Assembly (NCBI GenBank): GCA_014239365.1
Contig: JAAZZB010000049.1
Span: forward strand, 32,641-96,640
DNA length: 64,000 nt
DNA from: Verrucomicrobiia bacterium
GTDB taxonomy: Bacteria; Verrucomicrobiota; Verrucomicrobiia; Limisphaerales; UBA1100
Direction: 5' to 3'
How positions within the stretch are numbered: position 1 is the first letter of the stretch; every line of letters begins with the position of its first letter. Of this stretch, positions 22,207-40,792 are shown one piece after another. The notes beneath the pieces are model-generated. The model saw only the letters and a program-made list of their open reading frames with translations, was not told the origin of the DNA and searched no databases. A program made the translations under genes and the position numbers.

Positions 22207-22235
22207 AATCTTTTCGGTTTAAAAATGGTTAAACA

Positions 22236-22676: not shown

Positions 22677-22699
22677 AGCGGGAGAAGTTCGGGGTTGGG

Positions 22700-23014
22700 T
22701 TAACTGGCGGCCAGCTCGAGCGTGGCGCCGGTGGAGTGGGTGATTTGGGCGCGGAAAAATTCCGGGCGTTTGTCCAGTTCCTTGCGCAGCCCTTCAAGAG
22801 CGCCGCCTTCCAACTCGAACTGGAGGTTTACATAAAAGCCGCCTTTATGGCGTTTGTTGGCGATACGGACAAAGCCGCGTCGGCCGATTTTTTGTTCGTT
22901 AGTCACCTTGCCGCCGGCGTCGCTGATGAGGCCGTTGAGCTTGGTGATATGTTCGTCCACACTGTCGGACTGGCCGGTGGTGTCGATAATGAATAATCCG
23001 TCGTAGCGTTTCAC
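22700..23014 (-). CDS. rpsF: 30S ribosomal protein S6
   Basis: 104 aa. MKRYDGLFIID and the length are typical of S6, and it is the first gene of the rpsF-ssb-rplI group. Confidence 0.85.
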   Translation of the reverse strand: MKRYDGLFIIDTTGQSDSVDEHITKLNGLISDAGGKVTNEQKIGRRGFVRIANKRHKGGFYVNLQFELEGGALEGLRKELDKRPEFFRAQITHSTGATLELAAS

Positions 23015-23661: not shown

Positions 23662-23688
23662 TGGCGTAGGCGCACCGCTCGCGGCGGG

Positions 23689-24360: not shown

Positions 24361-24368
24361 CGTCTAAA

Positions 24369-25316
24369 TTATCCTATCCTCACTCCATCAAATTCAAACA
24401 GCGAGGTGACCGATGAATTCGTGTGAATCCGTTTAATCGCCTCGCCGAGCAAGCCGGCCACCGACAAAGTGGTCAGCTTTAAGCCCTTGATTTCGGGGCG
24501 GGGAACAGTATCAGTCGAGATAAGTTCGTCAATGTTTGATTTTCGCATTCTTTTTGCGCCCAAATCATTCAAAACACAGTGGGAAACCGCCGCAATAATC
24601 TTTTTCGCCCCACGCCGCCGCAGTAAGCGCGCCGCCGAAACCAGCGTTCCAGCCGTTTCTGTGAGGTCATCCACCAGTAAAACGGTCTTCCCGCGCACTT
24701 TGCCGATGACCGAAACGGTCTCGGTTTCCGTATCCGAAACCCGCCGCTTGGCCACGATCGCGAGGCTCGCGTGCAGCATTTGCGAGTACGCGTGGGCCAT
24801 TTTGATGCCGCCGGTGTCCGGACTCACCACCGCCAGTTCATCGCCCAAATCGAGGGTTTTGAGGTATTCAAAAATCACCGGCGCCGCATACAAATGATCC
24901 ACCGGAATATCGAAAAATCCTTGAATCTGCTGCGCGTGCAAATCGCACGTGAGCACGCGGTTCACGCCCGAAGCCACCAACAAGTTCGCCACCAACTTCG
25001 CGCTAATGGGCACACGCGGTTGATCTTTGCGATCCTGCCGCGCATAGCCATAAAAGGGCAGCACGGCGGTAATGCGATTGGCACTCGCCCGACGAAGCGC
25101 ATCAATCATAATGAACAGCTCCATCAAATTTTGGTTCGCCGGCGGGCACGTGCTTTGGATGACATACGCATCCTCGCCCCGCACATTTTCCTCAATCTTC
25201 ACGAACGTCTCGCCATTGGGGAAATCGCGGATGATTGCCTTGCCGATTGGCATATTGATGCTGTCCGCAATCGCCTCGGCGAGTGGACGGTTGGATCTGC
25301 CGGAAAATATTTTCAC
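24369..25316 (-). CDS. prs: ribose-phosphate pyrophosphokinase
   Basis: Start chosen at GTG (VKIFSGRSNRPLAEAIA). YARQDRK and the PRPP-binding loop LLVDDLTETAGT are present. The tracked ORF extends 20 codons further upstream with no Prs-like sequence. Confidence 0.85.
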   Translation of the reverse strand: MKIFSGRSNRPLAEAIADSINMPIGKAIIRDFPNGETFVKIEENVRGEDAYVIQSTCPPANQNLMELFIMIDALRRASANRITAVLPFYGYARQDRKDQPRVPISAKLVANLLVASGVNRVLTCDLHAQQIQGFFDIPVDHLYAAPVIFEYLKTLDLGDELAVVSPDTGGIKMAHAYSQMLHASLAIVAKRRVSDTETETVSVIGKVRGKTVLLVDDLTETAGTLVSAARLLRRRGAKKIIAAVSHCVLNDLGAKRMRKSNIDELISTDTVPRPEIKGLKLTTLSVAGLLGEAIKRIHTNSSVTSLFEFDGVRIG

Positions 25317-25427
25317 TGTATTATATAGGGAACTGCGCTTATGCCAAAAGAGTGCGCCCGTATCTACCCACCCCACCCCTGCGCGGCGAGCAAAAAAACA
25401 AGATGACAGAAAAAAATTAGGTTGAAC

Positions 25428-25952
25428 TCAAACCGAAGGCAAATCCTGCTTCGCCTCGCCATCGGCCGTCTGCTGCGCGCGGAAGCCTTCGTACGCCTTT
25501 TTGTACTCCGGATACTTGTTCCCGAGAATAGCCGTGGCCAGCAACGCCGCGTTCTTCGCGCCCGGCTTACCGACCGCCAAAGTGCCCACCGGCACGCCGC
25601 CGGGCATTTGCACCATCGAGAGCAATGAATCCATCCCCTCCGTACTCCAAGCCTTCATCGGCACGCCCAGCACCGGCACCGACGTGATCGCCGCCGTCAC
25701 CCCCGCCAAATGCGCCGCGCCACCGGCCGCTGCGATGATGACTTCCATCCCGTTCTCCGTGGAAGCGGTCACCCAACGCTGCAACAACTCCGGCGTCCGA
25801 TGCGCCGAAATCACTTTCGCCTCGAATGGCACCCCAAGGTCTTTGAGTTGCTTCGCACAATTCTCCATCACCGACCAGTCAGAATGACTGCCCATGATGA
25901 CGCCTACCAATGGTTTTGAATGTTTTGAATTCTCGCTCATAAAGCGCGGCAA
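25428..25952 (-). CDS. purE: 5-(carboxyamino)imidazole ribonucleotide mutase
   Basis: VGVIMGSHSDWSVM, SAHRTP and AGGAAHLAGVTAA are PurE class I hallmarks. The start may be the second Met (25940). Confidence 0.9.
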   Translation of the reverse strand: MPRFMSENSKHSKPLVGVIMGSHSDWSVMENCAKQLKDLGVPFEAKVISAHRTPELLQRWVTASTENGMEVIIAAAGGAAHLAGVTAAITSVPVLGVPMKAWSTEGMDSLLSMVQMPGGVPVGTLAVGKPGAKNAALLATAILGNKYPEYKKAYEGFRAQQTADGEAKQDLPSV

Positions 25953-25987
25953 CCTACTCCCTCAACCGGCAACGCTCAACCCTCAAC

Positions 25988-27088
25988 TTATCCACCGACC
26001 CCAATCGTCAACGCCGGCGCCACGGTCTTGATCTGGCCCGCCTGTAAATTGAACAACTGCGTGAGCAACATAAACGTGCTTTTGCTCTCCAAATCATTGT
26101 CCGCGAGGTAAAACCATTTACCGCGATAGGCCACGCTCACAAACGCATTGGCCGGACGCGCGTCGGCGGATTTCACGCGGAAGAGGCCGCCGGTCACTTT
26201 GTTCCAATCAAACGCCGTGCCATCCGCCGCCTTGGTGCGGGTCACCAATCCCGCCTCGTGATGCGCCGCGGGCACTTCAGCGTTGTGCGACAGGTAAAAC
26301 AAAATCCCCATCATCGACCGCGTGCGGACGGCCAATCCGTTTTCCGGCCGATTGAAAAAATTATTCGTCAACCGCAATTCGTTTCCCGCATTGGGCACGC
26401 CCAGCAATGCTTTCAATCGCGTCACCCGCGGCGCCAGTGCGCCCTCCGAACGCACGCGCAGCACCAAACCATTTCCCGCCTGCATCTTTCCGTCCGCATC
26501 CGGCACGCCCGGCGCAGCGCCCAAATCCAGCGCATCCGCCAGCTGCAGCTCGCGCAGGATGCCGACCATTTCCTGAAATTTCTCAAACCGCGGCTCACGC
26601 GATGGCGTCGGCCCCGAGGCGTTGCTCGCGTTGTCCAATCCATTCACGCGCTCCACGCAAATGCTTACCACCCGTTCCACGCTCCAACCGCTTTGCGTAA
26701 GAATCAGCACCGCCTCCAATGGCACCGGCGAAAGGATTTGTTTCAAAAACTGATCACCACGCAACGGCGCGTATGAAATAGTGGGCGTCTCTTTATAAGT
26801 CATCCCCGCCGAAGGCGTGAGCGTGTCGCCGCCGCGCAGGAATTTCACGCTCGCGCTCATTTCGCTTTCCACCGTTTGCTGCGTCGTCACGCTGCTTACC
26901 TCCAGGAAAAACGGGTTGTCGCGATACTTGAGCCGCACGAGGTTCAGCAAAAACTGCTCGTCCAGTGTGCGCGAGATGGCGTGGTTATATTGCGGATGCG
27001 TCGATTGCAGCGTGCGCGGCCCAATCGTTTGGCAGCCCACGGCGGCACACAACACAGTCGCCGCGAAAACGGTTTTTAGATTTTTCAT
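25988..27088 (-). CDS. hypothetical lipoprotein
   Basis: 366 aa with signal and lipobox VLCAAVG/C. I recognise no family. Coding is supported by length, codon style and non-overlap. Confidence 0.5.
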   Translation of the reverse strand: MKNLKTVFAATVLCAAVGCQTIGPRTLQSTHPQYNHAISRTLDEQFLLNLVRLKYRDNPFFLEVSSVTTQQTVESEMSASVKFLRGGDTLTPSAGMTYKETPTISYAPLRGDQFLKQILSPVPLEAVLILTQSGWSVERVVSICVERVNGLDNASNASGPTPSREPRFEKFQEMVGILRELQLADALDLGAAPGVPDADGKMQAGNGLVLRVRSEGALAPRVTRLKALLGVPNAGNELRLTNNFFNRPENGLAVRTRSMMGILFYLSHNAEVPAAHHEAGLVTRTKAADGTAFDWNKVTGGLFRVKSADARPANAFVSVAYRGKWFYLADNDLESKSTFMLLTQLFNLQAGQIKTVAPALTIGVGG

Positions 27089-27120
27089 TGGTTAAAACAA
27101 GTTTGCCGTCCCTGACAAAT

Positions 27121-29784
27121 TCAGGGCGAAGCGTTACCAGCTTTGTCCAATGCATCCAAGACCTTTTCCGGCCCGTTCATCACCGGCGGCAAAATAATCG
27201 CCTCCCCTTCCGGCGGATACACCAAAACCAACGGCACCCCCGCGCGTTTGTGTTGGTGCAGCACTTTGGTGATGACTTCATCCTTGTTAGTCCAATCCGC
27301 GATGAAAGCCACCCCATCCAGCTCGGCCAATTTTTCGATCACTGAATCCACCTCAATCGCGCGGCCTTTGGTGTATTTGCAGGTCATGCACCAATCCGCC
27401 GTGAAATCCACTAGCACCGGATGCCCCGCCGCGCGGGCTTCGGCCACGGCTTCGGGGTTCCATTTCCGCCACTGCACGCCGTCCGCTTTCACTTCGATGC
27501 CGCCGCCCACGGTCGTCCGGTTTTCCGGATGTCGCCAGTCCAGCCCCCATTCCAACGCCATCGCATAACCCGCCGCCAACAATAATGCGCAAGCCACTAA
27601 CGGCTTGGAACTTTTGGCCACCGTGCGCTGCATAAATTCGCCAAACACCCAAGCCGTTAAGCCCACAAACACCAGCAACACGCCCAGCCACATCACGCCG
27701 CTTTCGCCAAACATCGGCCCGGTGAACGACAGCACCCACACCGCCGCCGCCAGCATCGGGAAGCCCATTATTTGTTTGAACTGCACCATCCAGCTTCCCG
27801 GCTTCGGCAAAAATTTCAGCCACGCCGGATTGAAGCTCAGCAAAATATATGGAAACGCCAACCCCGCCGCCACCGCGCCCATCGCCGCGATGATCACGCC
27901 GTTGGATTGCGAAAGCGCCGCGCCCATTCCGCTCGCCAAAAACGGTGCCGTGCAAGGCGTGGCCAATGCCGTGGCGAGGATGCCATTAAAGAATGCGCCA
28001 AGATACCCTTCGCGACTCGCCAACGCGTTGGCCTTCGTCATCGCGCTGCCGCCGCCCAGCGATACTTCGAACACGCCGAACAAATTCAACGCCACCAAAG
28101 TGACCACCAACATCAAAACTAAATTGAAATTCGGGCTTTGCATTTGCATCCCCCACGACGCCATTCCGGTGGCTTGCTTGGCCCCAATCATCACCCCCGC
28201 CAGCACCATAAACGAAAAGAAAACTCCCATCCCATAAGTAAGCCCAAGATTCCGCAAACGCCCCGGCGCCTCCTGACTCTGCTGAACGAAGCCCAAAATC
28301 TTCATCGAAATCACCGGCAACACGCACGGCATCACGTTGAGAATCAATCCCCCCAAAAACGCGAAGCTCAAAATATACCAAATGGATTTGGGGGCATCAT
28401 CCGCCAAGCCGCCGCCACCCTCGCCACCGTTTTTGCCACTTTCCCCCGGCACCTTGGCCAGCCACGCTTTGAATTCCATCGGTGCATTTGCCAGCTTAGC
28501 CTCGCTGCCGATTTTTAATGTGAGTTGAATTTCCTTCTCCTGAGGCACGCAAGTTTTGTCATCGCATTCCTGCCACAAAACGTTCAGGCCAATTTCATAA
28601 TCGCCCGCCGCCACGCCCTTCGCCACCGTCAGCGGCGCGAGCAACATCACTTGGTGTTCGTACACGTTGGCCGTCTCGCCAAATAATTCCAGTTGCGTGT
28701 GTTGCGGCCATTTGATTTCGCCCGCAGTGATGCCCTCGGGCAACGTCCATTCAAACTTCGGCGGTTCGCCCGGCGCGCCCGGTTCTTTCCAAAAAATATG
28801 CCAATGCTTCGGAATGCTGAACGACACGCCCGCCAACACCTCACCGCCGGGCACGGCTTGAACATGATCCAGCCGCGCACTCACTTGGCACTGGGCGTCG
28901 CCAAACAAACCGCCGCCAAAGCTGCCCGAACCAAACGGTTCCTCCTCTTCCTTTGCGCCAATTTGAAATGCCGTTTCGTGACTGGTGACTTTGCCGTTTT
29001 CCTCAAACCGAACCACGCCGCGCACTTCGTCGGGCCATTGGCCGGTTTTGCTGGTGATTTTTTTGGTGAGGATGAATTCGCTTTCGCTTTTGGCCAGCGA
29101 GGTGGCGTGGGCGATTTCCCATTTCTTGCCCGATGTGCTGAAGGGCAGAAATTGCACGATGGTATCTTTGCTACCCACCGGCACGATCAGTTTCAAAATG
29201 CGCTCGCCATCGGCATTCGCCGTCCCGACCCAATGGGAGGGGAGTTGGGGCAACTCATTTTTTGCCGGCCATTGAGCGCGAGCTTCTTGAAAGAAATTCG
29301 CGTGTGGGCCGGGCTTGGGTTCCGCACCGACTATCAACTTTGCGCTCACTTCGGCTTCGCCGGGGATGCACGTTTCCTCGCACTCCAGCCAATCGACTTT
29401 TGCTTTTAGCAGATGCTCGCCCGCGGGCAAATCCGCCGCCAACGTGAGTGGCACGATCAAGAGTACTTCGCCGTGGTAGGCGTAAGTGAACATTTCCAAC
29501 CACTCGACTTTCTCCGGCACGGGCCATTGGATTTCGCCGGCGGTGATGCCTTTGGGGAGAGTCCACTTGATCGTCGTGGGCGTGCCGTTCTCGCCGGCGT
29601 TGCGCCAGTACGTGTGCCAACCGTCGGGCATTTCCAGCCGCATCCCCACCTCAATGGCGCTGCCCGCTTTGGCCACGGCGGGGTTTACCAGCAGGGTGAC
29701 TTTTGTTTTGGCACCGAAATCAAAATCCTGCGCCGATGCAATGCCCGCGCTTAATATCAATAAAATGGAAAACAACCGCCTCAT
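27121..29784 (-). CDS. dsbD: DsbD-family thiol:disulfide reductase with duplicated N-terminal domain
   Basis: 887 aa. It has two DsbD-N-like domains with Cys pairs (WLECEETC, WQECDDKTC), a CcdA/DsbD membrane core (NVMPCVLPVISMKILGF, ALATPCTAPFL) and a C-terminal thioredoxin fold with DWCMTCK. Confidence 0.8.
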   Translation of the reverse strand: MRRLFSILLILSAGIASAQDFDFGAKTKVTLLVNPAVAKAGSAIEVGMRLEMPDGWHTYWRNAGENGTPTTIKWTLPKGITAGEIQWPVPEKVEWLEMFTYAYHGEVLLIVPLTLAADLPAGEHLLKAKVDWLECEETCIPGEAEVSAKLIVGAEPKPGPHANFFQEARAQWPAKNELPQLPSHWVGTANADGERILKLIVPVGSKDTIVQFLPFSTSGKKWEIAHATSLAKSESEFILTKKITSKTGQWPDEVRGVVRFEENGKVTSHETAFQIGAKEEEEPFGSGSFGGGLFGDAQCQVSARLDHVQAVPGGEVLAGVSFSIPKHWHIFWKEPGAPGEPPKFEWTLPEGITAGEIKWPQHTQLELFGETANVYEHQVMLLAPLTVAKGVAAGDYEIGLNVLWQECDDKTCVPQEKEIQLTLKIGSEAKLANAPMEFKAWLAKVPGESGKNGGEGGGGLADDAPKSIWYILSFAFLGGLILNVMPCVLPVISMKILGFVQQSQEAPGRLRNLGLTYGMGVFFSFMVLAGVMIGAKQATGMASWGMQMQSPNFNLVLMLVVTLVALNLFGVFEVSLGGGSAMTKANALASREGYLGAFFNGILATALATPCTAPFLASGMGAALSQSNGVIIAAMGAVAAGLAFPYILLSFNPAWLKFLPKPGSWMVQFKQIMGFPMLAAAVWVLSFTGPMFGESGVMWLGVLLVFVGLTAWVFGEFMQRTVAKSSKPLVACALLLAAGYAMALEWGLDWRHPENRTTVGGGIEVKADGVQWRKWNPEAVAEARAAGHPVLVDFTADWCMTCKYTKGRAIEVDSVIEKLAELDGVAFIADWTNKDEVITKVLHQHKRAGVPLVLVYPPEGEAIILPPVMNGPEKVLDALDKAGNASP

Positions 29785-29861
29785 CCTGAAAAAAGCCTCT
29801 CAAAAAAGACGCCCCATTGAAATGCTTTATTCGCGCGCCAGCTTGTCATACACTCCCCGCA

Positions 29862-30260
29862 ATGCTCGCGAGCAAACGCAAATCTGAATCGGCCACCGCC
29901 GGAAGCGAAGTCAACTATCGCACCGGCGATGAACGCCTGGTGAAGCTCACCGACGCCGCCGCAGAGAAAGTCTCCGGACTCCTCCAACGCCAAGGCCGTC
30001 CGCAGGGCGTGTTGCGCGTGGCCGTCACTGGCGGCGGCTGCAGCGGCTTGCAGTACAAAATGGATTTGCAGGACACCCCCGCCAACCGTGATATCCTTGT
30101 GGAAAGCTGCGGCATCCGCGTCGTGGTCGATCCCAAAAGCGCACTGTACGTCACAGGCAGCGAGCTGGACTACAAAACCGGCTTCGAAGATTCCGGCTTC
30201 AAAGTCAACAACCCCAATGCCGCCACCACCTGTTCCTGCGGCGAAAGCTTCAGCGCGTGA
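29862..30260 (+). CDS. iron-sulfur cluster insertion protein (HesB/IscA/ErpA family)
   Basis: VAVTGGGCSGLQY and the C-terminal CSCGESF are the three conserved Cys of A-type carriers. The start is chosen at the internal Met (MLASKRK...). Confidence 0.8.
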   Translation: MLASKRKSESATAGSEVNYRTGDERLVKLTDAAAEKVSGLLQRQGRPQGVLRVAVTGGGCSGLQYKMDLQDTPANRDILVESCGIRVVVDPKSALYVTGSELDYKTGFEDSGFKVNNPNAATTCSCGESFSA

Positions 30261-30362
30261 GTGTTGCACTGCTCATTCTCATTGCGATTGGAGTCATCGC
30301 CCTTGGCGTCATCGCCGGAGCCATCGGCCTCGGCATTTGGCTTTGGCAACGGGAAAATAAAG

Positions 30363-30932
30363 ATGACTGACGCCTTCGCGCTGCTCGATGAACCGCGCCA
30401 ACCGTGGCTGGATCCCGCCGCGCTCAAGGAAAAATTCCTCGCTCGCTCAGCCACCACGCATCCGGATAAATTCACCGACCCCACCGAAAAGTCCGCCGCC
30501 CAAACCCGCTTCGCCGAACTCAACACCGCCCACGAAACCCTGCGCAACTCCAAGCGCCGCCTCCAACACCTCCTTACCCTCGAACGCGGCCGCAAGCCCG
30601 ACGAAGTCCACGACATCCTCCCCGCCACCGCCGAGCTCTTCCAACAAGTCGGCCAACTCCTCCGCGACATCGACCCCTTCCTCGCCCAACGCGAAGCCGA
30701 AACCTCCCCCCTCCTCAAAGCCCAAACCTACCCCCAAGCCCTCGACTGGCTCGACCAAGTCAACACCCTCCAAAACACCCTCACCCAAACCCTCCAAACC
30801 CACGACACCCAACTCCTTTCCCTAAACAAAAACTGGACCCCCGAAACCCTCGAACCCCTCTACCACCAATACAGCTACCTCCAAAAATGGCAGGAACAGC
30901 TGACCGACCGCGCCGTGCGATTGGGGTTTTGA
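30363..30932 (+). CDS. hscB: J-domain co-chaperone, HscB-like
   Basis: Start chosen at MTDAFALLDEP. An HPD motif is present (ATTHPDKF), followed by a helical C-domain. It is adjacent to the A-type Fe-S carrier. Confidence 0.55.
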   Translation: MTDAFALLDEPRQPWLDPAALKEKFLARSATTHPDKFTDPTEKSAAQTRFAELNTAHETLRNSKRRLQHLLTLERGRKPDEVHDILPATAELFQQVGQLLRDIDPFLAQREAETSPLLKAQTYPQALDWLDQVNTLQNTLTQTLQTHDTQLLSLNKNWTPETLEPLYHQYSYLQKWQEQLTDRAVRLGF

Positions 30933-31000
30933 ATTTACGAATGACGATTGGGGATTGACGAATGGGTTTCCATTCGCAAACCCAAATGAAAGTGCCCTCC

Positions 31001-31128
31001 AATGTAGCCCGGGCCGGTGGCCCGGGGCCCGGACCACCGGTCCGGGCTACAACCCAACCAATCGTAATTTTTCAATCGCAATTCAAAAATTCATTTACAC
31101 CCGCGCCTCAGCGCGTACTCTTTCACCT
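31001..31128 (+). repeat. composite repeat copy 1 (GC-rich palindrome plus AT-rich promoter-like tail)
   Basis: The core GTAGCCCGGGCCGGTGGCCCGGGGCCCGGACCACCGGTCCGGGCTAC lies at 31004-31050. The tail ends at the ATG of the 31129 gene. Confidence 0.85.
31094..31121 (+). promoter_or_regulatory. candidate promoter for a leaderless transcript (inside repeat copy 1)
   Basis: TTTACA, 16 nt, TACTCT, with the ATG 7 nt after the -10-like hexamer and no Shine-Dalgarno sequence. The same geometry occurs in copy 3. Confidence 0.35.
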
Positions 31129-31560
31129 ATGAAACAAACCTTTGTTTTTCTCATTGCGATGATTGGGTTTTGTCAAACATCGTTTGCCTCTCGACTAGTT
31201 CGCATTGAAGTTTCACTTGGAGATGTGGTCATTCTAGAGGGCTCGACCGGCGACAATGGGCGTCCAAACGCGGATGAAGTTTGGAAGTATCTTGCCAAAG
31301 TCCACCTTCGCCCAACAAAAGATTTCGAGCACCTTGTGCCGAAAAATGCCATCATCGCTAATAAACTTTTCTTGAACGCCAAAGGAAAATTGGTTGTCCA
31401 ATATGGCGGACAAATGGAATTCAAATCAGTTACATTCATCAAAGTGGAACATCGGGGGAAACCGTATTGGCAGTTGGAGCCGGTCTACATTAGTCGATGG
31501 ACCAATAGCCGATTAATCAGACGGTCTGATGCAGGAGGACTAAAAGGCTTCGGCAAGTAA
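31129..31560 (+). CDS. secreted hypothetical protein
   Basis: 143 aa with signal peptide MKQTFVFLIAMIGFCQTSFA. No family recognised. A sampled line in this gene counted 43% GC. Confidence 0.5.
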   Translation: MKQTFVFLIAMIGFCQTSFASRLVRIEVSLGDVVILEGSTGDNGRPNADEVWKYLAKVHLRPTKDFEHLVPKNAIIANKLFLNAKGKLVVQYGGQMEFKSVTFIKVEHRGKPYWQLEPVYISRWTNSRLIRRSDAGGLKGFGK

Positions 31561-31563
31561 GTT

Positions 31564-31691
31564 GCTGTAGCCCGGGCCGGTGGCCCGGGGCCCGGACCAC
31601 CGGTCCGGGCTACAATCCAACCAATCATAAATCTTCAATCATCATTCAAAAATTCATTTACACCCGCGCCGCTGCGGGCATCCTTTTGCCT
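31564..31691 (+). repeat. composite repeat copy 2
   Basis: Core at 31567-31613 and a tail ending at ATG 31692. Only a 39-codon dead-end ORF follows (MKLSKMRTEPF...). Confidence 0.85.
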
Positions 31692-31722
31692 ATGAAGTTG
31701 TCAAAAATGAGAACTGAACCGT

Positions 31723-32073
31723 TTATGATTCCAACTCATTTTTCAGGCTTGGCCCCATCAATGGAATCAATTGACCCACCACATTCTTATGCCCCGTCAA
31801 GTTTTCAATAAATGACACTGAAATAAGTTCGCGCACACATTCATCGGAATTGCACATCGAATGCTCAAAATAGTTTAGAATGCGACACACAGAATCCTCG
31901 GAGCCAATCGCCCCTTCGCCGGATGCTTCAATAACAAATCGTGTCACGTCACCAAGGAATATGTGCGGCAGAATTTCATCGTTAGCACTGATATGTTCAT
32001 CATATCGTTGCTTAAGTTCCGGCACCTGATTCAGAAGCCCCTCGATAAATTCAATTGAAGAGAGGTCTCTCAA
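31723..32073 (-). CDS. hypothetical protein, candidate orphan immunity protein
   Basis: 116 aa, acidic, with no signal peptide and a TTG start directly after the upstream stop in the same frame. It is the last gene of the toxin/immunity train, in a low-GC segment (38% in a sampled line). Confidence 0.4.
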   Translation of the reverse strand: MRDLSSIEFIEGLLNQVPELKQRYDEHISANDEILPHIFLGDVTRFVIEASGEGAIGSEDSVCRILNYFEHSMCNSDECVRELISVSFIENLTGHKNVVGQLIPLMGPSLKNELES

Positions 32074-32106
32074 ATCATTTTCCTTCCAAGGTGGATTGAA
32101 GGTCTT

Positions 32107-32340
32107 TTAAGATTTCTTTGGGAATTGCCTCAATTGTTCAATTGTCATTTCAAATTCAAAGCCTTCTTCCATAACGATCACCTTCATCATTTGTTTTTGT
32201 AAATCCGAATCATCAATATCATAACCGCAACCCAAATCGGAATATTCTGTAAATGCCCAACGCGCCAGCTTGGCTGGATCGTATCCCCCTCCCAATTGTC
32301 GCCTTAATCGCCGTGCGAATTCTTTTTTCGTATAACTCAT
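32107..32340 (-). CDS. hypothetical small protein, candidate orphan immunity protein
   Basis: 77 aa (MSYTKKEFARRLRRQLGGGYDPAKLARWAFTEY...MEEGFEFEMTIEQLRQF). The call rests on context and size only. Confidence 0.4.
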   Translation of the reverse strand: MSYTKKEFARRLRRQLGGGYDPAKLARWAFTEYSDLGCGYDIDDSDLQKQMMKVIVMEEGFEFEMTIEQLRQFPKKS

Positions 32341-32382
32341 CGCCCCATTTCAGTTCCAGTTGGATTCTTAGTTTTCACAGCT

Positions 32383-32844
32383 TCACATAAATTTCAACAC
32401 GTCGAAACTCCCAATGCTTTCAGCTAAATCCTTCGGGGATACTTCATAAGCATTTTTAAGATTTCTGTCTGCTCCTGAAGTAAGTAACAATGTGATTAAT
32501 TCCCCGTGCCCATCTGAGTTGAATACGGCATTTGATAAAGGTGTGTTTCCGTCGTCATCCTGCGGATCAATATTCGCACCATTTTCCAGAAGTAATTTAG
32601 CCAAATCGGTTTCGAATCCCGCAGACGCGTAATGAAGCGGAGCACAGTGATGATTGTCTAATAAATTGGGATCAGCCCCTCCTTTCAAAAGGATCAATGC
32701 CATTTCCTTCCGCCCATCGATGATTGAATGAAATAATGCAGTTCGATTATCACCATCAACTGCGTCAACATCCGTAGAAGGCTCTTCAAGTGCCAATCGA
32801 AGCTGATCGGATTTCCCTTTAAAAACTAACTCAATTAAATCCAA
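32383..32844 (-). CDS. ankyrin-repeat protein (candidate immunity protein)
   Basis: 153 aa with three to four ANK units (NRTALFHSIIDGRKEMALILLKGGADPN, HCAPLHYASAGFETDLAKLLLENGANID, GNTPLSNAV...LLLTSGADRN). It starts 3 nt after the GH-E-like fragment. Confidence 0.85.
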   Translation of the reverse strand: MDLIELVFKGKSDQLRLALEEPSTDVDAVDGDNRTALFHSIIDGRKEMALILLKGGADPNLLDNHHCAPLHYASAGFETDLAKLLLENGANIDPQDDDGNTPLSNAVFNSDGHGELITLLLTSGADRNLKNAYEVSPKDLAESIGSFDVLKFM

Positions 32845-32847
32845 CAG

Positions 32848-33075
32848 TTAATCTTTCATCTCGAACCGATGGCTCCGGTTTGAACTTGGATCTTCTAGCT
32901 GATAAAGATCGGGATTATTCATTCTATCATTGAACTCCTTCTGAGTTAACCCCTCAACCTCAGCCTTTGCTTTTTCTCTTCGAAACACGGGGGACCCTAG
33001 CCCCGCCACTTCAGTTCTCAAAAACATCCACCCCATTTTTCCGAACCGAGACATTCCCGTCACCTGGCCAAACAC
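32848..33075 (-). CDS. orphan toxin-tip fragment, GH-E (HNH/EndoVII) nuclease-like
   Basis: The 75-aa ORF ends ...GLTQKEFNDRMNNPDLYQLEDPSSNRSHRFEMKD, which matches my recollection of the C-terminal half of GH-E nuclease tips. It has no secretion or N-terminal toxin body and overlaps the upstream ORF by 65 nt. Confidence 0.4.
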   Translation of the reverse strand: MFGQVTGMSRFGKMGWMFLRTEVAGLGSPVFRREKAKAEVEGLTQKEFNDRMNNPDLYQLEDPSSNRSHRFEMKD

Positions 33076-33259
33076 TCAGCACCAAATGAGATTTTGATTC
33101 CTTTTCTACACTCACTGTCGCCGGCTCCATAGTGAATGCATCATACACAGCAACGCTTTCATTCTCCTGAAGAGTTATTATCACAGCTTCCGGCTCAATA
33201 TGTATTTCAAGCGGAATTTGCATTCCGTTTTTGATATTGAAAACATTTTGAGCAGTCAT
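33011..33259 (-). CDS. hypothetical small protein, candidate cognate immunity of the 425-aa protein
   Basis: 82 aa, starting 11 nt downstream of the 425-aa gene, with no signal peptide. The call rests on position only. Confidence 0.4.
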   Translation of the reverse strand: MTAQNVFNIKNGMQIPLEIHIEPEAVIITLQENESVAVYDAFTMEPATVSVEKESKSHLVLSVWPGDGNVSVRKNGVDVFEN

Positions 33260-33270
33260 TTCTAGTTCTT

Positions 33271-34548
33271 TTATTTAAACACATTCAAGGCAATTGCTCG
33301 CAATTGGGCCGCCCGACCTGCGGCACTTGGGTTTTGCGGGGTAATTCGGGCAACATCTTCGTACGCTCTGGCCACATCGAGCAATTCCTCGCGTGTCCAG
33401 CCTCTTTCCAAAAGAGCTTCCTGCGAAAAACTCTCTGGGGTCTTCGAAACTCGCCTTGGTTTCCACCCGAAAAATTCACCAACTTCGCGCAAGCTAGATC
33501 GGCCGACAGCTCTAATCCTTTGCTTTAACCCCACTTCAGCCAATGTGTTCACCGGGGTATTGGCGGCCCCTCCTGCTCTTGCTGTTCCAATGACGGGTGG
33601 CCCGATCACTGGCGGTGGGGTTGGCGGAATGACTCCGTATCTGGTTAGTGCGCTCCACCCGCCAGCGGCGACTCCTGCCGTAGCCGCCACACCGCCTCCT
33701 ATTCGGGCACCACGTTGGTACCAATTCCCCACTGGCTCACCGGTCATTAAATCGATATTACTGGCTCCGGACCAAACCTCCCCTACATTCCAGCTTGTGA
33801 GTGCGTAGCTCCCAGCATCCACAAAACCATCTTCATTATATATGGTATCAATATTTCTCCCAAATCGTGCCAAGCCTGCGGCTAAATGTCGTGGAGAAGC
33901 CATTCCCGCCATCGATTCATTGAGGCTCGCGCCTGCCGCAGCCAATCCGCCCAAGGTGGGCGAATCCGTTCTATTGCTCAAATCATCCCATCCTCTGCTA
34001 GAATACTGGAACAACTCGGAAAGCAACTCCCGATTGCTCGCGTAGATGAGCCTGTTGATTAGAAGTTCATTCGCCCGGGCAGCTTCCTGACATTCTTCCC
34101 AATCCCAAAAGTCGCTTTCATCGGCTAATCCTCCTCCGGCCCGAATCCATTCCGCCTCAGTCCAGCACCCGATCGCTTTATCAATCATTAAGGCAATGTC
34201 TGCCGAATTTTCTTTGTAGGCCCAATCCACAAAATGCCCAATGGGCAACAGCACCCAATCCGGATCGCTCAAATCTGGCACCCAATCTCCTTCGGGAATT
34301 GCGACCCTTCCATCCTTTGGTGGCCCTCCGTGGCGCTGCCAATATGCGTGGATAGCTTCCATTGCCACAGCGTCCGTCCAGCGTGGCAAACCCAAATCTC
34401 CCATAATGCCATCCCAAATCTCTAAGCGCACCTCCTCCAAAACGCCCTCAAATAAACTATCGCCGCCTTCGTCAGCAGCATTAGTGAATGAGGGAAACAG
34501 AAACAGAACTGTCAGGAATGCTCTTGAGATTATTTGCTTCATTTTCAT
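33271..34548 (-). CDS. secreted polymorphic-toxin-like protein (signal peptide, PT-TG-like module, unassigned C-terminal domain)
   Basis: 425 aa. Signal MKMKQIISRAFLTVLFLFPSFTNA/ADEGG. NIDLMTGEPVGNWYQRGARIGGGVAATAGVAAGGW resembles the pre-toxin TG module. A Pro-rich linker IPPTPPPVIGPPVIG precedes a C-terminal domain of about 95 aa. Confidence 0.5.
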   Translation of the reverse strand: MKMKQIISRAFLTVLFLFPSFTNAADEGGDSLFEGVLEEVRLEIWDGIMGDLGLPRWTDAVAMEAIHAYWQRHGGPPKDGRVAIPEGDWVPDLSDPDWVLLPIGHFVDWAYKENSADIALMIDKAIGCWTEAEWIRAGGGLADESDFWDWEECQEAARANELLINRLIYASNRELLSELFQYSSRGWDDLSNRTDSPTLGGLAAAGASLNESMAGMASPRHLAAGLARFGRNIDTIYNEDGFVDAGSYALTSWNVGEVWSGASNIDLMTGEPVGNWYQRGARIGGGVAATAGVAAGGWSALTRYGVIPPTPPPVIGPPVIGTARAGGAANTPVNTLAEVGLKQRIRAVGRSSLREVGEFFGWKPRRVSKTPESFSQEALLERGWTREELLDVARAYEDVARITPQNPSAAGRAAQLRAIALNVFK

Positions 34549-34656
34549 AAGAGGCTCAATTCAGCACCTCGGTTCTCTGCTTGTCAATATTTATGAAAAA
34601 AACTGCCTGCCCACAACTTATTGGAATTCATTCCCATTATCGACCACCGACACCCC

Positions 34657-34784
34657 AATGTAGCCCGGGCCGGTGGCCCGGGGCCCGGACCACCGGTCCG
34701 GGCTACAACCCAACCAATCGTAAATCTTCAATCGCAATTCAAAAACTCATTTACACCGCCTCCCCATCGCGTACTCTTTCGCGC
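34657..34784 (+). repeat. composite repeat copy 3
   Basis: Core at 34660-34706. The tail holds TTTACA (34750-34755) and TACTCT (34772-34777) and ends at the ATG of the DUF1080 gene. Confidence 0.85.
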
Positions 34785-35435
34785 ATGAAGCACACCTTTG
34801 TTTTTCTCATCACGTTGTTTAGCCTTTCCACTTTTGACTCGTTGCAGGCGGGGCCGCCGAAGGGGTTTGTGGCTTTGTTCAATGGAAAAAATCTCGATGG
34901 CTGGAATGCCAAACCAAATGGATGGACGGTGGTCGATGGCGTGCTCACGCGTATGCCGAGGAGTGGATACATTTGGACGAAGGAGAGTTATGGCGATTTT
35001 GTTTTGGATGTGGAGGTGAAGGTTTCGCGTCGGTGCAATAGCGGCATCTTTTTTCGCACGGACCCGAAAAACGCGGTGCAAGGTGGATTTGAAATTCAGG
35101 TGTTCGATACCACGGGAAAAACGAAGCTCGGCAAGCACGATCACGGCGCGTTGTACGATGCCCTCGCTCCGAGCGCCAACCCCGCCAAACCGGCCGGCGA
35201 ATGGGATCGCTTTATCATCACCTGCAAAGGCCCGAAGATCACGGTGAGCATCAATGGCAAACAAGTCGTGAACGCCAACCTCGATGACTGGAAGACCGGC
35301 AACAAAAACCCCGACGGCAGCCGCAACAAATTCAAAACCGCCCTCAAGGATCTCCCCCGCACCGGCCACATCGGTTTCCAGGATCACGGGCAGAATGTGT
35401 GGTTCCGGAATGTGTATTTGAAAAAGTTGGATTGA
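34785..35435 (+). CDS. DUF1080 (3-keto-disaccharide hydrolase-like) domain protein, secreted
   Basis: Signal MKHTFVFLITLFSLSTFDSLQA. FVALFNGKNLDGWNAKPNGWTVVDGVL...GDFVLDVEVKVSRRCNSGIFFR...GHIGFQDHGQNVWFRNVYLKKL is the typical DUF1080 pattern. Confidence 0.75.
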   Translation: MKHTFVFLITLFSLSTFDSLQAGPPKGFVALFNGKNLDGWNAKPNGWTVVDGVLTRMPRSGYIWTKESYGDFVLDVEVKVSRRCNSGIFFRTDPKNAVQGGFEIQVFDTTGKTKLGKHDHGALYDALAPSANPAKPAGEWDRFIITCKGPKITVSINGKQVVNANLDDWKTGNKNPDGSRNKFKTALKDLPRTGHIGFQDHGQNVWFRNVYLKKLD

Positions 35436-35519
35436 GTAGATTTTTGGTTTTCGATTGAAGAATGGTTGGGTTGTAGCCCGGACCGGTGGTCCGGGCCCCG
35501 GGCCACCGGCCCGGGCTAC
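35436..35519 (-). repeat. composite repeat copy 4 (inverted, tail truncated)
   Basis: The core is read in reverse orientation at 35473-35519. The partial tail runs leftward and abuts the DUF1080 stop. Confidence 0.75.
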
Positions 35520-35635
35520 AATTCCAACGCTGCTTCCAATAAGCTTGCATTCGAAAACTTTGGCGTCTTTCCGATTTACTTGTTCCCCCATCAAATAAGT
35601 TGAATCTCTAGCCCATCCGCAGTATCCAACTACCA

Positions 35636-37129
35636 ATGCGCACGACCTTTACCCTCCTTGTGCTGGCCTTCGGCTGGCAGTCCGCCCTCGCACTCGATTG
35701 GCCGCAATGGCGCGGCCCAAACCGCACCGGCATCAGCGCCGAGAAGGGCCTCCTCAAACAATGGCCCCAAGGCGGCCCCAAACGCCTGTGGATCAACAGC
35801 CAAATGGGCAACGGCTATTCCAGCTTCGCCATTGCCAAAGGCAAACTTTACACCCTCGGCTCGCGGCGCGGAACGGAGCAATTGATTTGCCTCGATGCAA
35901 ACTCTGGGCGCGAACAATGGGCGGCCAATCTTGGCCCCGAATTATCCAATAGCTGGGGCGGCGGCCCGCGCGGCACGCCCACCGTTGATGGCAATCGCAT
36001 CTACGCGATGAGCGGCAAAGGCAATTTGGTGTGCACCGATCTCGCCGGTAAAATCCAATGGCAAGCGAGTATGGCACGCCTCGGCGGCGGCGTGCCGCAA
36101 TGGGGCTACACCGAAAGCATCACCGTGGATGGCAACCTCGCACTGGCCACGCCGGGCGGAGGACAAGGCGCGGTGGTTGCGTTCAACAAACTTTCCGGCC
36201 AAGTGGTTTGGCAAAGCAAACAATTCACCGATGGCGCGCAGTACGCCTCGGTGTTGCCGGTGACGCACAACGGCGGCCGCCAATACATTCAGCTCACGCA
36301 AAAAAGTTTGGTGGGCCTCGACGCGCGCACGGGCAATGTCCTCTGGAAATCCGGGTGGGGCGGCAAAACGGCGGTGATCCCCACGCCGATTTTTAGCAAC
36401 GGCAAAGTGTACATCGCCAGCGGCTACGGCGCGGGCAGCAAATTAGTCAACGTCGGAGCGGGCAATCGCGCCAGTGATGTGTGGTCAAACAAGGTGATGA
36501 AAAATCATCACGGCGGGGTGATTTTGTTCGGCCAACATTTGTACGGCTACAGCGATGGCGCGGGTTGGGTGTGCCAGGATTTCGCCAGCGGCCGCGAAGT
36601 GTGGAGCGAAAAACGCGCGCTCGGCAAAGGCTGCCTCACCATCGCCGATGGGATGATGTATTGCGTGGACGAAAGCCGCGGCGACATCGTGCTTGCGGCG
36701 GCCAACCCGCGCGGCTGGCGTGAGAGCGGTCGCTTCCGCCTCGCACCGCAATCGCGCATCCGCAGTAGTCGCGGCAAAATCTGGAGCCATCCCGTGGTGG
36801 CCAACGGCAAACTATATCTGCGCGATCAAGAACACCTTTACTGCCACCAAATCAGCGGCGGCGGCGCAGCGGTCACCCCCACCCCTGCGGGCCCTCCCGG
36901 AAAAGCCATCGCGTGGACCGCCAGCGTGGACAACAAATCCATCGACGCTATCTATAAAGGCAAAACGCAGGCCGTCGTCACCACCGTCTTCGGCCAACCC
37001 TCCAAAACCCAAGGCACGTGGAAGGCCTATTCCGGCTTGAACATCACCGATCGCCAAGGCAAAAAGTACGGAACCGTTTGGTTCAACCTCGCCGGCGGCA
37101 CAGTCCAGCAAGTGCGTTTTGATAAATGA
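35636..37129 (+). CDS. PQQ-like beta-propeller repeat protein (BamB-family fold)
   Basis: 497 aa with a signal peptide, then DWPQWRGPNRTG and repeated propeller blades (G.LY....G.L.C.D...G...W). An extra C-terminal domain of about 90 aa is present. Confidence 0.75.
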   Translation: MRTTFTLLVLAFGWQSALALDWPQWRGPNRTGISAEKGLLKQWPQGGPKRLWINSQMGNGYSSFAIAKGKLYTLGSRRGTEQLICLDANSGREQWAANLGPELSNSWGGGPRGTPTVDGNRIYAMSGKGNLVCTDLAGKIQWQASMARLGGGVPQWGYTESITVDGNLALATPGGGQGAVVAFNKLSGQVVWQSKQFTDGAQYASVLPVTHNGGRQYIQLTQKSLVGLDARTGNVLWKSGWGGKTAVIPTPIFSNGKVYIASGYGAGSKLVNVGAGNRASDVWSNKVMKNHHGGVILFGQHLYGYSDGAGWVCQDFASGREVWSEKRALGKGCLTIADGMMYCVDESRGDIVLAAANPRGWRESGRFRLAPQSRIRSSRGKIWSHPVVANGKLYLRDQEHLYCHQISGGGAAVTPTPAGPPGKAIAWTASVDNKSIDAIYKGKTQAVVTTVFGQPSKTQGTWKAYSGLNITDRQGKKYGTVWFNLAGGTVQQVRFDK

Positions 37130-37167
37130 ACATTTGAAACTTGAAAATTAAACACACCCTTAATCCT

Positions 37168-38388
37168 ATGCGTATCCTAACATCCCTCATCCTCTTGAGC
37201 CTCGCGCTCCAATCCTTCGCTGCAAACTGGTCGCAATGGCGCGGCCCCAATCGCGACGGTGTAAACCCCGAAAAAGGCCTCGCCAATCAATGGCCCGAGG
37301 CCGGCCCCAAGTTACTCTACAAAGCCACCGGCGTGGGCGTTGGATTTTCCAGCGTGGTCATCGCCGATGGCACCGTGTACACGCTCGGCGATTTGGATGA
37401 TGCCTGCTATCTCTTCGCGCTCGATCTCAAGGGCAAACAAAAATGGAAAGCCCGCGTGGGCGATCCCAAAGGCCACCGTGGTTACCCCGGCCCGCGCTCC
37501 ACGCCCACAGTGGCCAACGGCCTCGTCTATTGCCTCGGCCAACACGCCGATCTGGTTTGCATCAGCACTGCCGGCAAAGAAGTGTGGCGCGTGAATTTGC
37601 AAAATGATTTCGGCGGCAAAATGATGAGCGGCTGGCGCTGGAGCGAATCGCCATTGGTCGATGACGGCAACGTGATCGTCACCCCCGGCGGACGCGATGG
37701 TGCCGTGATTGCCCTCAACGCCAAGACCGGCAAACAAGCGTGGCGCTGCGAAGATTGGCAGGACTCCGCCGGTTATTCCTCACTCATCATCCGCGAGATT
37801 GGCGGCATCAAACAATACCTCCAGCTCACCGGCAACAGCGTGGCGGGCATCGACGCGAGCAACGGCAAACTGTTGTGGAGCGCTCCACGCAAAGGACGCA
37901 CCGCGGTGGTTAGCACGCCGGTGTTTCATAAAGGCACGCTGTTTGTCACCAGCGCGTACAACGTGGGCTGCAACGGGTTCACCGTGGAATACAAAGACAA
38001 TAAGTTTAACACGAAAGAAATTTATAAACACGCCGGCGGCGTGGGAATGGCCAACCACCACGGCGGCGCCATTCGCGTGGGCGATTATGTGTACGGCTCC
38101 AACGGCGGCTCAATGTCCTGCATTGAACTGGCCACCGGCAAAGTGATGTGGAACGAACGCAGCGCCGGCAAAGGCGCGATCGTGGTGGCCGATAATAAAA
38201 TCATCCTCCGCACCGAACGCGGCCCCGTGTCGCTCGTGAAGCTCACCCCCAAAGCCTACGAAGAAGTCAGCCGCTTCAACCAACCGGAACGCACCCGAGC
38301 CAAAGCCTGGGCGCATCCGGTGGTGCTCGATGGGAAATTATACCTGCGCGATCAGGATAGCTTGTTTGTCTTTGATGTGAGCGAGTAG
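37168..38388 (+). CDS. PQQ-like beta-propeller repeat protein, paralog of the preceding gene
   Basis: Start chosen at MRILTSLILLSLALQSFA. It has the same NWSQWRGPNRDG entry motif and blade pattern. Confidence 0.75.
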   Translation: MRILTSLILLSLALQSFAANWSQWRGPNRDGVNPEKGLANQWPEAGPKLLYKATGVGVGFSSVVIADGTVYTLGDLDDACYLFALDLKGKQKWKARVGDPKGHRGYPGPRSTPTVANGLVYCLGQHADLVCISTAGKEVWRVNLQNDFGGKMMSGWRWSESPLVDDGNVIVTPGGRDGAVIALNAKTGKQAWRCEDWQDSAGYSSLIIREIGGIKQYLQLTGNSVAGIDASNGKLLWSAPRKGRTAVVSTPVFHKGTLFVTSAYNVGCNGFTVEYKDNKFNTKEIYKHAGGVGMANHHGGAIRVGDYVYGSNGGSMSCIELATGKVMWNERSAGKGAIVVADNKIILRTERGPVSLVKLTPKAYEEVSRFNQPERTRAKAWAHPVVLDGKLYLRDQDSLFVFDVSE

Positions 38389-38394
38389 CGCTGA

Positions 38395-38532
38395 AATTCC
38401 CAAGGCCCAAGAACCAAACCCCCAAGGAAATCCCAATGACCAATTCCCAAAGGGGAACGTCATCGAAATTGGGCTTTTAGTTTTTGGGGATTGGGTATTC
38501 CTTGGAATTTGGGCATTGGGAATTTGGGCATT
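38395..38532. repeat. long imperfect palindrome of CCAAGG/ATTGGG-type short motifs (family D)
   Basis: AAATTCCCAAGGCCCAAGAACC...GGGATTGGGTATTCCTTGGAATTTGGGCATTGGGAATTTGGGCATT, lying between convergent genes. Related copies lie at 40669-40792 and 45822-45908. Confidence 0.7.
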
Positions 38533-38540: not shown

Positions 38541-40607
<2,067 letters not shown>

Positions 40608-40668: not shown

Positions 40669-40792
40669 AAATGACCAATGACCAAGTTTCAATGCCCAAG
40701 GAAATCCCAATCACCAAATCCCAATAAACCAAACTTGCCCTTATTGGGGCTTGGGTATTCCTTGGAATTTGGTCATTGGGCCTTGGTCATTT
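40669..40792. repeat. family D long imperfect palindrome
   Basis: The arms AAATGACCAATGACCAAGTTTCAATGCCCAAGGAAATCCCAAT... and ...ATTGGGGCTTGGGTATTCCTTGGAATTTGGTCATTGGGCCTTGGTCATTT are about 55 nt each. The right arm contains the STAS gene stop. Confidence 0.7.

Follow-up and report, generated by a model that had tools for sequence, protein, structure and literature searches.

The locus considered here raises the question of whether bacteria of the order Limisphaerales possess a portable module able to supply genes with expression and secretion signals. It lies between positions 31004 and 35585 of a stretch of 64,000 nucleotides, hereafter the window, taken from a Verrucomicrobiia bacterium (GenBank assembly GCA_014239365.1, contig JAAZZB010000049.1, positions 32,641 to 96,640 of the forward strand). 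A 47-nt palindromic core is found there in three direct copies and one inverted copy (copies 1 to 4, with cores R1 to R4); the direct copies are followed by an A+T-rich tail ending at a start codon, and a group of toxin/immunity-type genes stands between copies 2 and 3. An earlier note, made from the sequence alone, had seen in core, tail and first codons a single transferable unit consisting of a hairpin, a promoter and the beginning of a signal peptide. As set out below, this apparent module resolves into a dimer of repetitive extragenic palindromic (REP) sequences and the native promoter of a DUF1080 gene. The explanation that we prefer, with a probability of about 0.7, is that a REP heterodimer stands beside this native promoter and that repeat-associated recombination or duplication, accompanied by the uptake of foreign DNA, reiterated the pair. 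The locus combines elements of known kinds; it does not represent a new class of mobile expression modules.

The core as a dimer of GTAG-tagged REPs

All four copies of the core reported earlier are present with 0 mismatches (Table 1). No fifth copy was found in the window with up to three mismatches allowed, and none occurred in 100 shuffled sequences (chance expectation 0). The description of the core as an imperfect palindrome holds insofar as the single-stranded 47-mer folds into one hairpin of 23 bp, interrupted by two imperfections (-45 kcal/mol as RNA, -25 as DNA); a dimer of two REP hairpins, each perfect and tagged with GTAG, is nevertheless the better reading. Each 23-nt half folds alone into an 8-bp stem with a 3-nt GGT loop, leaving GTAG unpaired (-10.7 and -9.4 kcal/mol in the DNA fold). 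The first half, REP-a, consists of GTAG followed by CCCGGGCC-GGT-GGCCCGGG; after a spacer of 1 nt comes the inverted second half, REP-b, which on the opposite strand consists of GTAG followed by CCCGGACC-GGT-GGTCCGGG. The unit can be written as GTAGCCCGGRCCGGTGGYCCGGG. The tag precedes the stem in both halves in 8/8 independent copies. The two "mismatches" of the long hairpin are half positions 10 and 18, which are paired together within the small hairpin, as G-C in REP-a and as A-T in REP-b, and this small stem contains a G-T wobble in the sole other variant, found in the core of the L004/L009 lineage of relatives described below. This pattern is suggestive of a compensatory double change in the small hairpins. 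Across genomes, the central spacer base alone varies in the core, being G, A, T or C.

GTAG-tagged REPs have stems of 6-13 bp, loops of 2-3 nt and a terminal unpaired GTAG; they are often dimeric, the arrangement with outward-facing GTAGs being named "HH", and heterodimers with complementary stem changes are frequent (PMC3733652). In the verrucomicrobium Opitutus terrae, the partners of HH dimers are only 1-2 bp apart, GTAG-17 being an example (PMC3733652). Most GTAG REPs are located just 3' of open reading frames (ORFs), between convergent or unidirectional genes, and their clusters are reiterated together with flanking DNA (Di Nocera, De Gregorio & Rocco 2013, PMC3733652). With respect to stem and loop size, terminal GTAG, inverted dimer with a 1-nt spacer and extragenic 3' site, the core agrees with this description, and by its sequence features it can be classed as an HH heterodimer of two inverted 23-nt GTAG-tagged REPs with the GTAGs outward.

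The occurrence of the core elsewhere points in the same direction. One genome for each of 185,579 species was scanned for the exact pattern, with N at the five variable positions, and three loci (L001-L003) were retrieved from two uncultured Verrucomicrobiae metagenome-assembled genomes (MAGs), with 2 and 1 exact copies. In each of them the dimer stands alone, without a tail, 70, 2 and 19 nt past a stop codon and with a convergent ORF opposite; it is not always the same half, a or b, that faces the upstream gene. In the window, the dimers of copies 1, 2 and 4 also lie past stop codons (Table 1), and copy 3, between divergent genes, is the exception to this placement because duplication placed it there. 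All independent occurrences of the core (8/8) are a+b dimers, and no solitary half was found in the 254 kb searched, even with up to four mismatches. From sequence and position, the core would belong to a small dispersed family of marine subdivision-3 Verrucomicrobia (Limisphaerales), with members normally just 3' of genes, which we propose as a new low-copy GTAG-REP dimer family of uncultured Limisphaerales.

Other assignments of the core were rejected. It does not appear to be a miniature inverted-repeat transposable element (an element with terminal inverted repeats mobilised by a DDE transposase), as no direct repeat or target-site duplication abuts it in copies 1-4 or in L001-L003. A canonical intrinsic terminator was discarded as well: the core is followed by AACCCAACC on the plus strand and by ATTGG... 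on the minus strand, without a T-run, and a terminator scan did not report the cores. In the interval 30.9-35.7 kb, nothing in Rfam reached the gathering thresholds and no tRNAs were found; the matches at the E-value threshold are sub-threshold miRNA-precursor models, that is, generic hairpin matches. The core pattern gave 0 matches in viral contigs, and no REP-associated tyrosine transposase (RAYT, a Y1 HUH transposase) was found among the 50 window ORFs scanned. As modelled by folding, the dimer can form one long hairpin as DNA or RNA, and between genes it probably serves in addition to form 3' ends or to insulate transcripts.

The window contains at least two further families of GTAG...CTAC dimers, with 2-nt spacers (49783-49834 and 53835-53881), for a chance expectation of 0.11 GTAG tags beside perfect hairpins in the window. 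Judging from these repeats, the clade would carry several GTAG-REP families. Another GTAG...CTAC dimer, also with a 2-nt spacer, is located at 7247-7298 and a single GTAG unit at 14522-14545, and one other GTAG-REP family is common to the window and the FRAM MAG (L001, 7126-7181). A palindrome of another kind, with 25-nt arms (TTGGAGGGACGAGCTTGCGAGTCCG and its complement), is found at 40320-40378 of the window and at about 7225-7307 of L001, and represents a dispersed intergenic repeat.

The tail as the native promoter of the DUF1080 gene

In copies 1-3, an A+T-rich tail of 78 nt comes after the core and runs up to an ATG (31129, 31692 and 34785). All three tails contain the -35 hexamer TTTACA and a 16-nt spacer; the -10 position reads TACTCT in tails 1 and 3 and CATCCT in tail 2, and 7 nt further comes the start codon. 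No AGGAGG-like (Shine-Dalgarno) motif is present in tails 1-3. The promoter-like geometry noticed earlier, TTTACA-N16-TACTCT-N7-ATG without a Shine-Dalgarno sequence, is real, and five lineage classes have kept it in front of the DUF1080 orthologue.

The tails differ in their relationships. Tail 3 is identical at 76/78 positions to the single tail of the close relatives L004 and L009, tail 1 at 67/78 both to tail 3 and to the tail of these relatives, and tail 2 at 59-63/78 to the other tails. A 27-base tail pattern searched in a metagenome collection of 241 million records had a single match, the orthologous locus of L004 (JACKQG010000339.1), and no tail was found outside orthologous loci in about 190-250 kb of related DNA. 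At every orthologous locus examined, TTTACA-N16-TAC(T/C)CT-N7-ATGAAGCA is kept in register and the spacer sequence drifts, a pattern which can be taken as the phylogenetic footprint of a promoter. On this comparative basis, the tail of 78 nt can be assigned to the DUF1080 gene as the region natively upstream of it, and within the tail the final 36 nt constitute a conserved promoter of leaderless-type geometry.

Promoters of leaderless mRNAs, as found in Actinobacteria, Deinococcus and archaea, have a -10 element about 7 nt upstream of the start codon. In the tails, likewise, the ATG sits where transcription start would be expected, and we infer that the mRNA may be leaderless. The neighbouring PQQ-repeat gene has a similar promoter geometry at 35590-35638 of the window (TTGAAT-N17-TATCCA-N6/7-ATG), kept in L004, L014, L018 and L019. 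Because this adjacent gene has the same geometry in all lineages, the leaderless-type layout looks like a habit of the clade rather than a property of the repeat, and the two adjacent genes together suggest that leaderless transcripts may be common in the clade. A regular-expression count of this geometry across the window yielded a handful of further candidates. A literature search for published maps of transcription start sites or leaderless mRNAs in Verrucomicrobia found nothing. With regard to the beginning of the tail (CCCAACCAAT), it resembles the complement of G/T-rich low-complexity intergenic repeats (TTGGG/ATTGG) located at 38484-38531, 40744-40791 and 45861-45908, which may be a common intergenic feature of the genome.

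Relatives with a single copy or none

The contig L004 is collinear with positions 19272-37750 of the window at about 91% DNA identity and has the order hscB, one REP dimer with tail, DUF1080 and PQQ. It lacks the segments 31152-34650 and 35436-35585, as do 12 contigs carrying P0013; in the close relatives there is neither a 143-aa gene nor a toxin/immunity island nor a copy 4. The first extra piece of the window amounts to 3.66 kb, within which lie the 143-aa gene, the toxin/immunity train and copy 2. A long direct duplication flanks it: 157 nt of L004, starting 9 nt to the left of the core and reaching about 22-26 nt inside the coding sequence (CDS), match both 30995-31151 and 34651-34807. 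In the comparison of synteny proposed in the earlier note, relatives without the 31.15-34.8 kb segment have exactly one repeat unit. These single-copy relatives may represent either the empty site or the product of a crossover between R1 and R3 in their 60-75-nt identical stretch.

The more distant loci separate the two parts of the unit. Contigs whose HscB is 96% identical to that of the window (L009-L013) carry one REP dimer with tail, as L004 does. At 83% identity (L014-L017) there is no REP and the tail is kept, at 84% identity, in an hscB-DUF1080 gap of about 540 nt that includes a DUF2784 ORF. At 78% (L018), 49 nt separate the hscB stop from the DUF1080 ATG, and in L019-L024, whose PQQ protein falls in the 90%-identity cluster of that of the window, the gap is 36 nt and TTTACA directly follows the stop codon. 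The promoter is present and the REP absent throughout L014-L024. These uncultured marine Limisphaerales provide an intergenic series going from 36 nt to 49 nt, then to an A+T-rich stretch, a REP dimer, and finally a triplication with captured genes.

Different insertions are seen at the same places in L014. An insert of about 450 nt with the DUF2784 ORF occupies the same intergenic site (5034-5575), and the DUF1080-PQQ spacer (6228-6296) contains a palindrome of about 60 nt, AACCGCC...GGCGGTT, resembling the flank of the REP dimer in L001. From these comparisons, the spacers between hscB, DUF1080 and PQQ seem to be recurrent insertion sites.

Capture of a promoter and signal-peptide start by a foreign gene

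The similarity between copies 1 and 3 continues into the CDS, where it is near-identical over about 26 nt (36/48 overall), the repeat search delimiting 173 nt at 88%. The extension of about 25 nt described earlier is confirmed, and the products otherwise differ, being a protein without Pfam match after copy 1 and a PF06439 protein after copy 3. Homologues of the 143-aa protein (35-39% identity) align with it only from residue ~21 (SRLVRIEVSL... versus ARYVRAEISL...) and have longer, unrelated N-terminal signal peptides, and the first 9-14 residues of the protein (MKQTFVFLI...) are encoded by the copied 5' end of the DUF1080 gene (MKHTFVFLI...). As the N-terminus corresponds to this copied 5' end and the N-termini of homologues are unrelated to it, the duplication equipped a foreign gene with promoter, start codon and the first part of a signal peptide. 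The corresponding proposal of the earlier note is borne out in this respect, as a local event. The 143-aa family (P0002-P0006) consists of secreted proteins of about 140-165 aa with an invariant LEGSTGDNGR and a conserved R(L/F)IRRSDA, for which there is no Pfam model.

Copy 2 leads only, as already stated in that note, to a 39-codon ORF (31692-31811), which runs in antisense over the 3' end of the last gene of the train, the DUF7674 gene on the minus strand (31723-32073). The position of the train between copies 2 and 3 is likewise correct, with margins of 31 nt and 111 nt. The G+C content of the train and the 143-aa gene is 0.40-0.49, versus 0.55-0.62 in the surroundings. The GH-E match in the train (ORFs at 32848-33259) covers the C-terminal 42 residues of the domain only, and the 75-aa ORF overlaps the 82-aa ORF by 65 nt. 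Judged by its domain content, this GH-E ORF resembles a toxin module that is orphaned or truncated, and the ankyrin gene after it resembles those of the immunity type.

Of copy 4, the earlier note gave the inverted core. The inversion stands, but the core is not bare, since 20-45 nt of tail are retained. It comprises the inverted dimer, a tail-like part (35436-35472) devoid of -35 and -10 elements, and 66 nt (35520-35585) matching nothing else compared. The tail remnant extends over 20 nt without a gap (a 68-nt inverted repeat at 96%), or about 45 nt with one 7-nt gap.

Table 1. Position and nature of the repeat copies and associated genes in the window.
Feature	Position	Strand	Description
Core of copy 1 (R1)	31004-31050	+	REP HH heterodimer, 72 nt past the hscB-like stop codon (30930-30932)
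REP-a of copy 1	31004-31026	+	First half of the dimer, followed by the 1-nt spacer
REP-b of copy 1	31028-31050		Second half of the dimer, inverted
Tail 1	31051-31128	+	Paralogous copy of the DUF1080 promoter region; -35 at 31094-31099, -10 at 31116-31121
143-aa gene	31129-31560	+	Secreted protein, no Pfam match; first ~26-41 nt derived from the DUF1080 5' end
Core of copy 2 (R2)	31567-31613	+	REP dimer, 6 nt past the stop codon of the 143-aa gene
Tail 2	31614-31697	+	Most diverged; -35 kept (31657-31662), -10 position CATCCT (31679-31684); homology ends at ATGAAG
Foreign gene train	31723-34548	-	Low GC; 425-aa secreted protein, 82-aa ORF, 75-aa GH-E nuclease fragment (PF14410), 153-aa ankyrin protein, 77-aa ORF, 116-aa DUF7674 protein
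Core of copy 3 (R3)	34660-34706	+	REP dimer between the divergent 425-aa and DUF1080 genes
Tail 3	34707-34784	+	Orthologous (native) DUF1080 promoter; -35 at 34750-34755, -10 at 34772-34777
DUF1080 gene	34785-35435	+	DUF1080/3-keto-disaccharide hydrolase family, 216 aa, PF06439 (E = 1.5e-50), signal peptide
Copy 4 (R4)	35436-35585	-	Insertion of ~150 nt behind DUF1080, absent from all relatives
Core of copy 4	35473-35519	-	Inverted REP dimer, 37 nt past a stop codon

Origin of the repeated pair and alternative explanations

What is directly observed is the anatomy of the locus, core and tail occurring apart from each other, relatives with a single copy, conservation of the promoter and an N-terminus of chimeric origin; the following course of events could account for these observations. 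A REP dimer would have inserted between hscB and the promoter in the common ancestor of the strain and its ~91%-identical relatives, and about 3.66 kb of low-GC foreign DNA, containing the 143-aa gene and the toxin/immunity train, would later have entered that intergenic region. Recombination events with a left boundary fixed at the REP dimer and a varying right boundary would each have reiterated REP and promoter. In one copy, the 143-aa gene would have become joined to the promoter, the ATG and ~9-14 initial codons of the signal peptide; copy 2 would have decayed, and a partial inverted copy, copy 4, would have landed behind DUF1080. The presence of the direct copies R1 and R3 would make the insert excisable by homologous recombination. 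The idea that the repeat served as a recombination site is supported to the extent that it flanks the insertion and that relatives without the segment carry one unit.

Concerning the boundaries, the left edge of all four copies coincides with the REP dimer within 2-9 nt. The right ends vary, from ATG+26 to ATG+45 in copies 1 and 3, to ATG+6 in copy 2 and to about 45 nt of tail in copy 4. Apart from one 13-nt match between copies 3 and 4, the sequences to the left of the four copies show no relationship. The four cores of the window are identical at 47/47 positions and the tails are 14-24% different. Because of the common left boundary, the perfect identity of the cores and the known behaviour of REP clusters, the dimer itself may have been the active site of recombination. 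No integrase, transposase or recombinase was found among the 50 window ORFs or in the gene tables of the relatives.

Several points weigh against this reconstruction. Classical REP families have >100 copies, and the exact pattern of the core is found in only 2 of 185,579 species genomes (3 loci), with no further copies in the remaining 59 kb of the window or in about 190 kb of relatives. The compensatory change in the stems is a single event, and covariation between half-units, calculated from three distinct rows, is not significant (174/500 shuffles). The -10 hexamer TACTCT matches TATAAT at T1, A2 and T6 only (3/6), and a consensus promoter scan did not flag it. Furthermore, tails 1 and 2 have states in common with one another and with the outgroups L014/L019, and two substitutions found both in tail 3 and in L004/L009 are absent from them. 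Given these missing substitutions, either the copies split before the divergence of the strain from L004/L009, or tails 1 and 2 arrived with the insert from another lineage; if the copies pre-date the split, the relatives would have lost the insert by a deletion between R1 and R3. The identity of the cores despite the divergence of the tails would in turn imply gene conversion or selection on the dimer. Finally, we infer, rather than observe, the order of events, the enzyme, and the joining of the foreign genes to the promoter copies.

The main rival, which we regard as unlikely, is a plain segmental duplication or homologous recombination (a Campbell-type crossover, or an allelic replacement from a related donor) with the hairpin as a passive, terminator-like bystander. 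It fits with the duplication of copies 1 and 3, which begins about 9 nt left of the core, not exactly there, and extends into the CDS, with the structure of the relatives, explicable as a crossover product of R1 and R3 or as an empty site, and with the lack of a recombinase nearby. The left edge shared by four copies with different right ends is harder to explain in this manner, as are the contrast between identical cores and diverged tails and the dispersal of the core in other genomes, and a structure without a T-run on either strand is not a canonical intrinsic terminator. The portable expression/secretion module inserting before genes genome-wide, as first proposed, can draw on the joint copying of core and tail three to four times at the locus, on the unrelated secreted protein of 143 aa now driven by one copy, and on copy 4, where the core and part of the tail are found at a new site in inverted orientation. 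We nevertheless consider it very unlikely, and the claim was not supported: the single metagenome match of the tail is the orthologous locus and the tail occurs nowhere else in related DNA, the core is found elsewhere without it and 3' of genes, the promoter exists without the core in L014-L024, and only two genes follow a copy, one of them being the promoter's original owner.

An integron-like array, with the hairpin as an attC-like site and the 143-aa gene and toxin train as cassettes without an integrase, is extremely improbable. Direct structured repeats do separate gene units, with 6 nt from ORF to hairpin in the case of the 143-aa gene, and chromosomal integron cassettes typically carry small unknown proteins and toxin/immunity genes, as the cargo does here. 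However, the ends of the core read GTAGCCC/GGGCTAC, without GTTRRRY/RYYYAAC boxes, and the palindrome shows two mismatches without bulges or extrahelical bases. Moreover, the repeat unit includes a 78-nt promoter tail and part of a CDS, one copy is inverted, there is no integrase in the 64 kb or in the gene tables of the relatives, and elsewhere the core is found as a single copy between housekeeping genes that converge.

An artefact of the assembly of a MAG has an almost negligible probability. Contigs of the same strain, L006 and L007, do show conflicting junctions at the core: a reverse-complemented PQQ flank is joined through the core to tail 1 in L006 (1-735 / 648-3991) and to tail 3 in L007 (1-2535 / 2468-3313). 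Nevertheless, the divergence of the tails is incompatible with collapsed or duplicated reads, and the independent same-strain assemblies L006 and L008 reproduce the order R1, 143-aa gene, R2, island and R3 at 99.95-99.97% identity, L007 reproducing DUF1080-R4; an artefact is excluded by these diverged tails and independent contigs. The junctions match those that inversions between R1 and R4 and between R3 and R4 would produce, and could also be chimeras formed at the 60-75-nt exact repeat. Such an inversion would not be a simple on/off switch, because DUF1080 keeps its promoter in either isomer. A lower divergence of the insert than of its flanks between strains, which would have pointed to recent transfer, was rejected, since the differences of L006 are due to alignment run-on into the tails and L006-L008 belong to the same strain as the window. 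Independently of this, the window differs from L007 by 13 substitutions within 90 nt of the second PQQ gene (37611-37701) and is otherwise identical, which may reflect gene conversion between PQQ paralogues.

A bolder reading would make the dimers the fixed end or crossover site of a cassette-like gene capture, each event reiterating the adjoining leaderless promoter and fusing it, with the first signal-peptide codons, to a foreign gene. We hold this to be decidedly unlikely. If true, such REP-anchored capture would constitute an integrase-less, REP/RAYT- or hairpin-driven analogue of the integron, and inversion isomers of natural populations, at which L006 and L007 hint, would likewise be due to these dimers.

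Other features of the window

Outside the locus, two matches to the Acido-Lenti-1 RNA (RF01687; 47.5 and 42.9 bits, above the gathering score) are located at 57798-57843 on the minus strand and 57942-57987 on the plus strand, inside a nested inverted repeat of about 300 nt (57738-58032). A near-perfect palindrome is present at 44008-44103, with 47-nt arms that are 83% complementary and 2 nt apart. A PIN-domain gene (1491-1871), probably the toxin of a toxin-antitoxin pair, adjoins a glutamyl/glutaminyl-tRNA synthetase gene.

Significance and comparison with known systems

The locus illustrates a route by which a horizontally acquired gene may gain expression and export, namely, by receiving the promoter, start codon and signal-peptide start of a resident gene through repeat-associated duplication. 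It also adds a GTAG-REP HH heterodimer family to a clade in which REPs have barely been described, and indicates that the "mismatches" of long hairpins can be compensatory pairs of their constituent small hairpins.

With regard to known systems, the tail resembles leaderless promoters in its hexamers 16 nt apart, its ATG 7 nt past the -10, the absence of a Shine-Dalgarno sequence and its conservation among orthologues, but it departs from the leaderless or sigma-70 consensus in that TACTCT fits the TAnnnT positions only. The cargo resembles polymorphic toxin/immunity loci with orphan modules, having a GH-E C-terminal fragment followed by an ankyrin gene and further small genes; this likeness concerns the cargo and not the repeat, and no toxin domain was recognised in the 425-aa protein that heads the train. 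As a rule, integron cassettes carry no promoter. The locus shares with attC sites and cassettes the direct structured palindromes between small genes and a cargo of unknown proteins and toxin/immunity genes, and differs from them in lacking the R'/R'' consensus, the extrahelical bases and the integrase, in the inversion of one copy and in the promoter carried by the repeat. Islets flanked by direct repeats, resulting from Campbell-type integration and lost by repeat-mediated deletion, offer a parallel, with the 3.66-kb low-GC insert, the ~157-nt repeats and the single-copy relatives. Unlike such islets, there is neither integrase nor att-tRNA here, the repeat is an intergenic REP with a promoter, and a third, internal copy splits the insert.

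As for repetitive elements, REPINs (Bertels & Rainey 2011) and bacterial interspersed mosaic elements (BIMEs) are concepts related to REP dimers. The core is most like the GTAG HH dimers, such as GTAG-17 of O. terrae, in its GTAG tags facing outward, its GC-rich 8-bp stems, its 3-nt loops and its 1-nt spacer; it is, like them, a heterodimer with complementary stem changes, extragenic and near the 3' ends of ORFs, often between convergent genes, and it shares its genome with other GTAG families and is locally reiterated with flanking DNA. Unlike GTAG REPs, it is of very low copy number (1-2 exact copies per searched genome), no solitary monomers were seen, and the flank reiterated here is a promoter with the start of a CDS, foreign genes being lodged between the copies.

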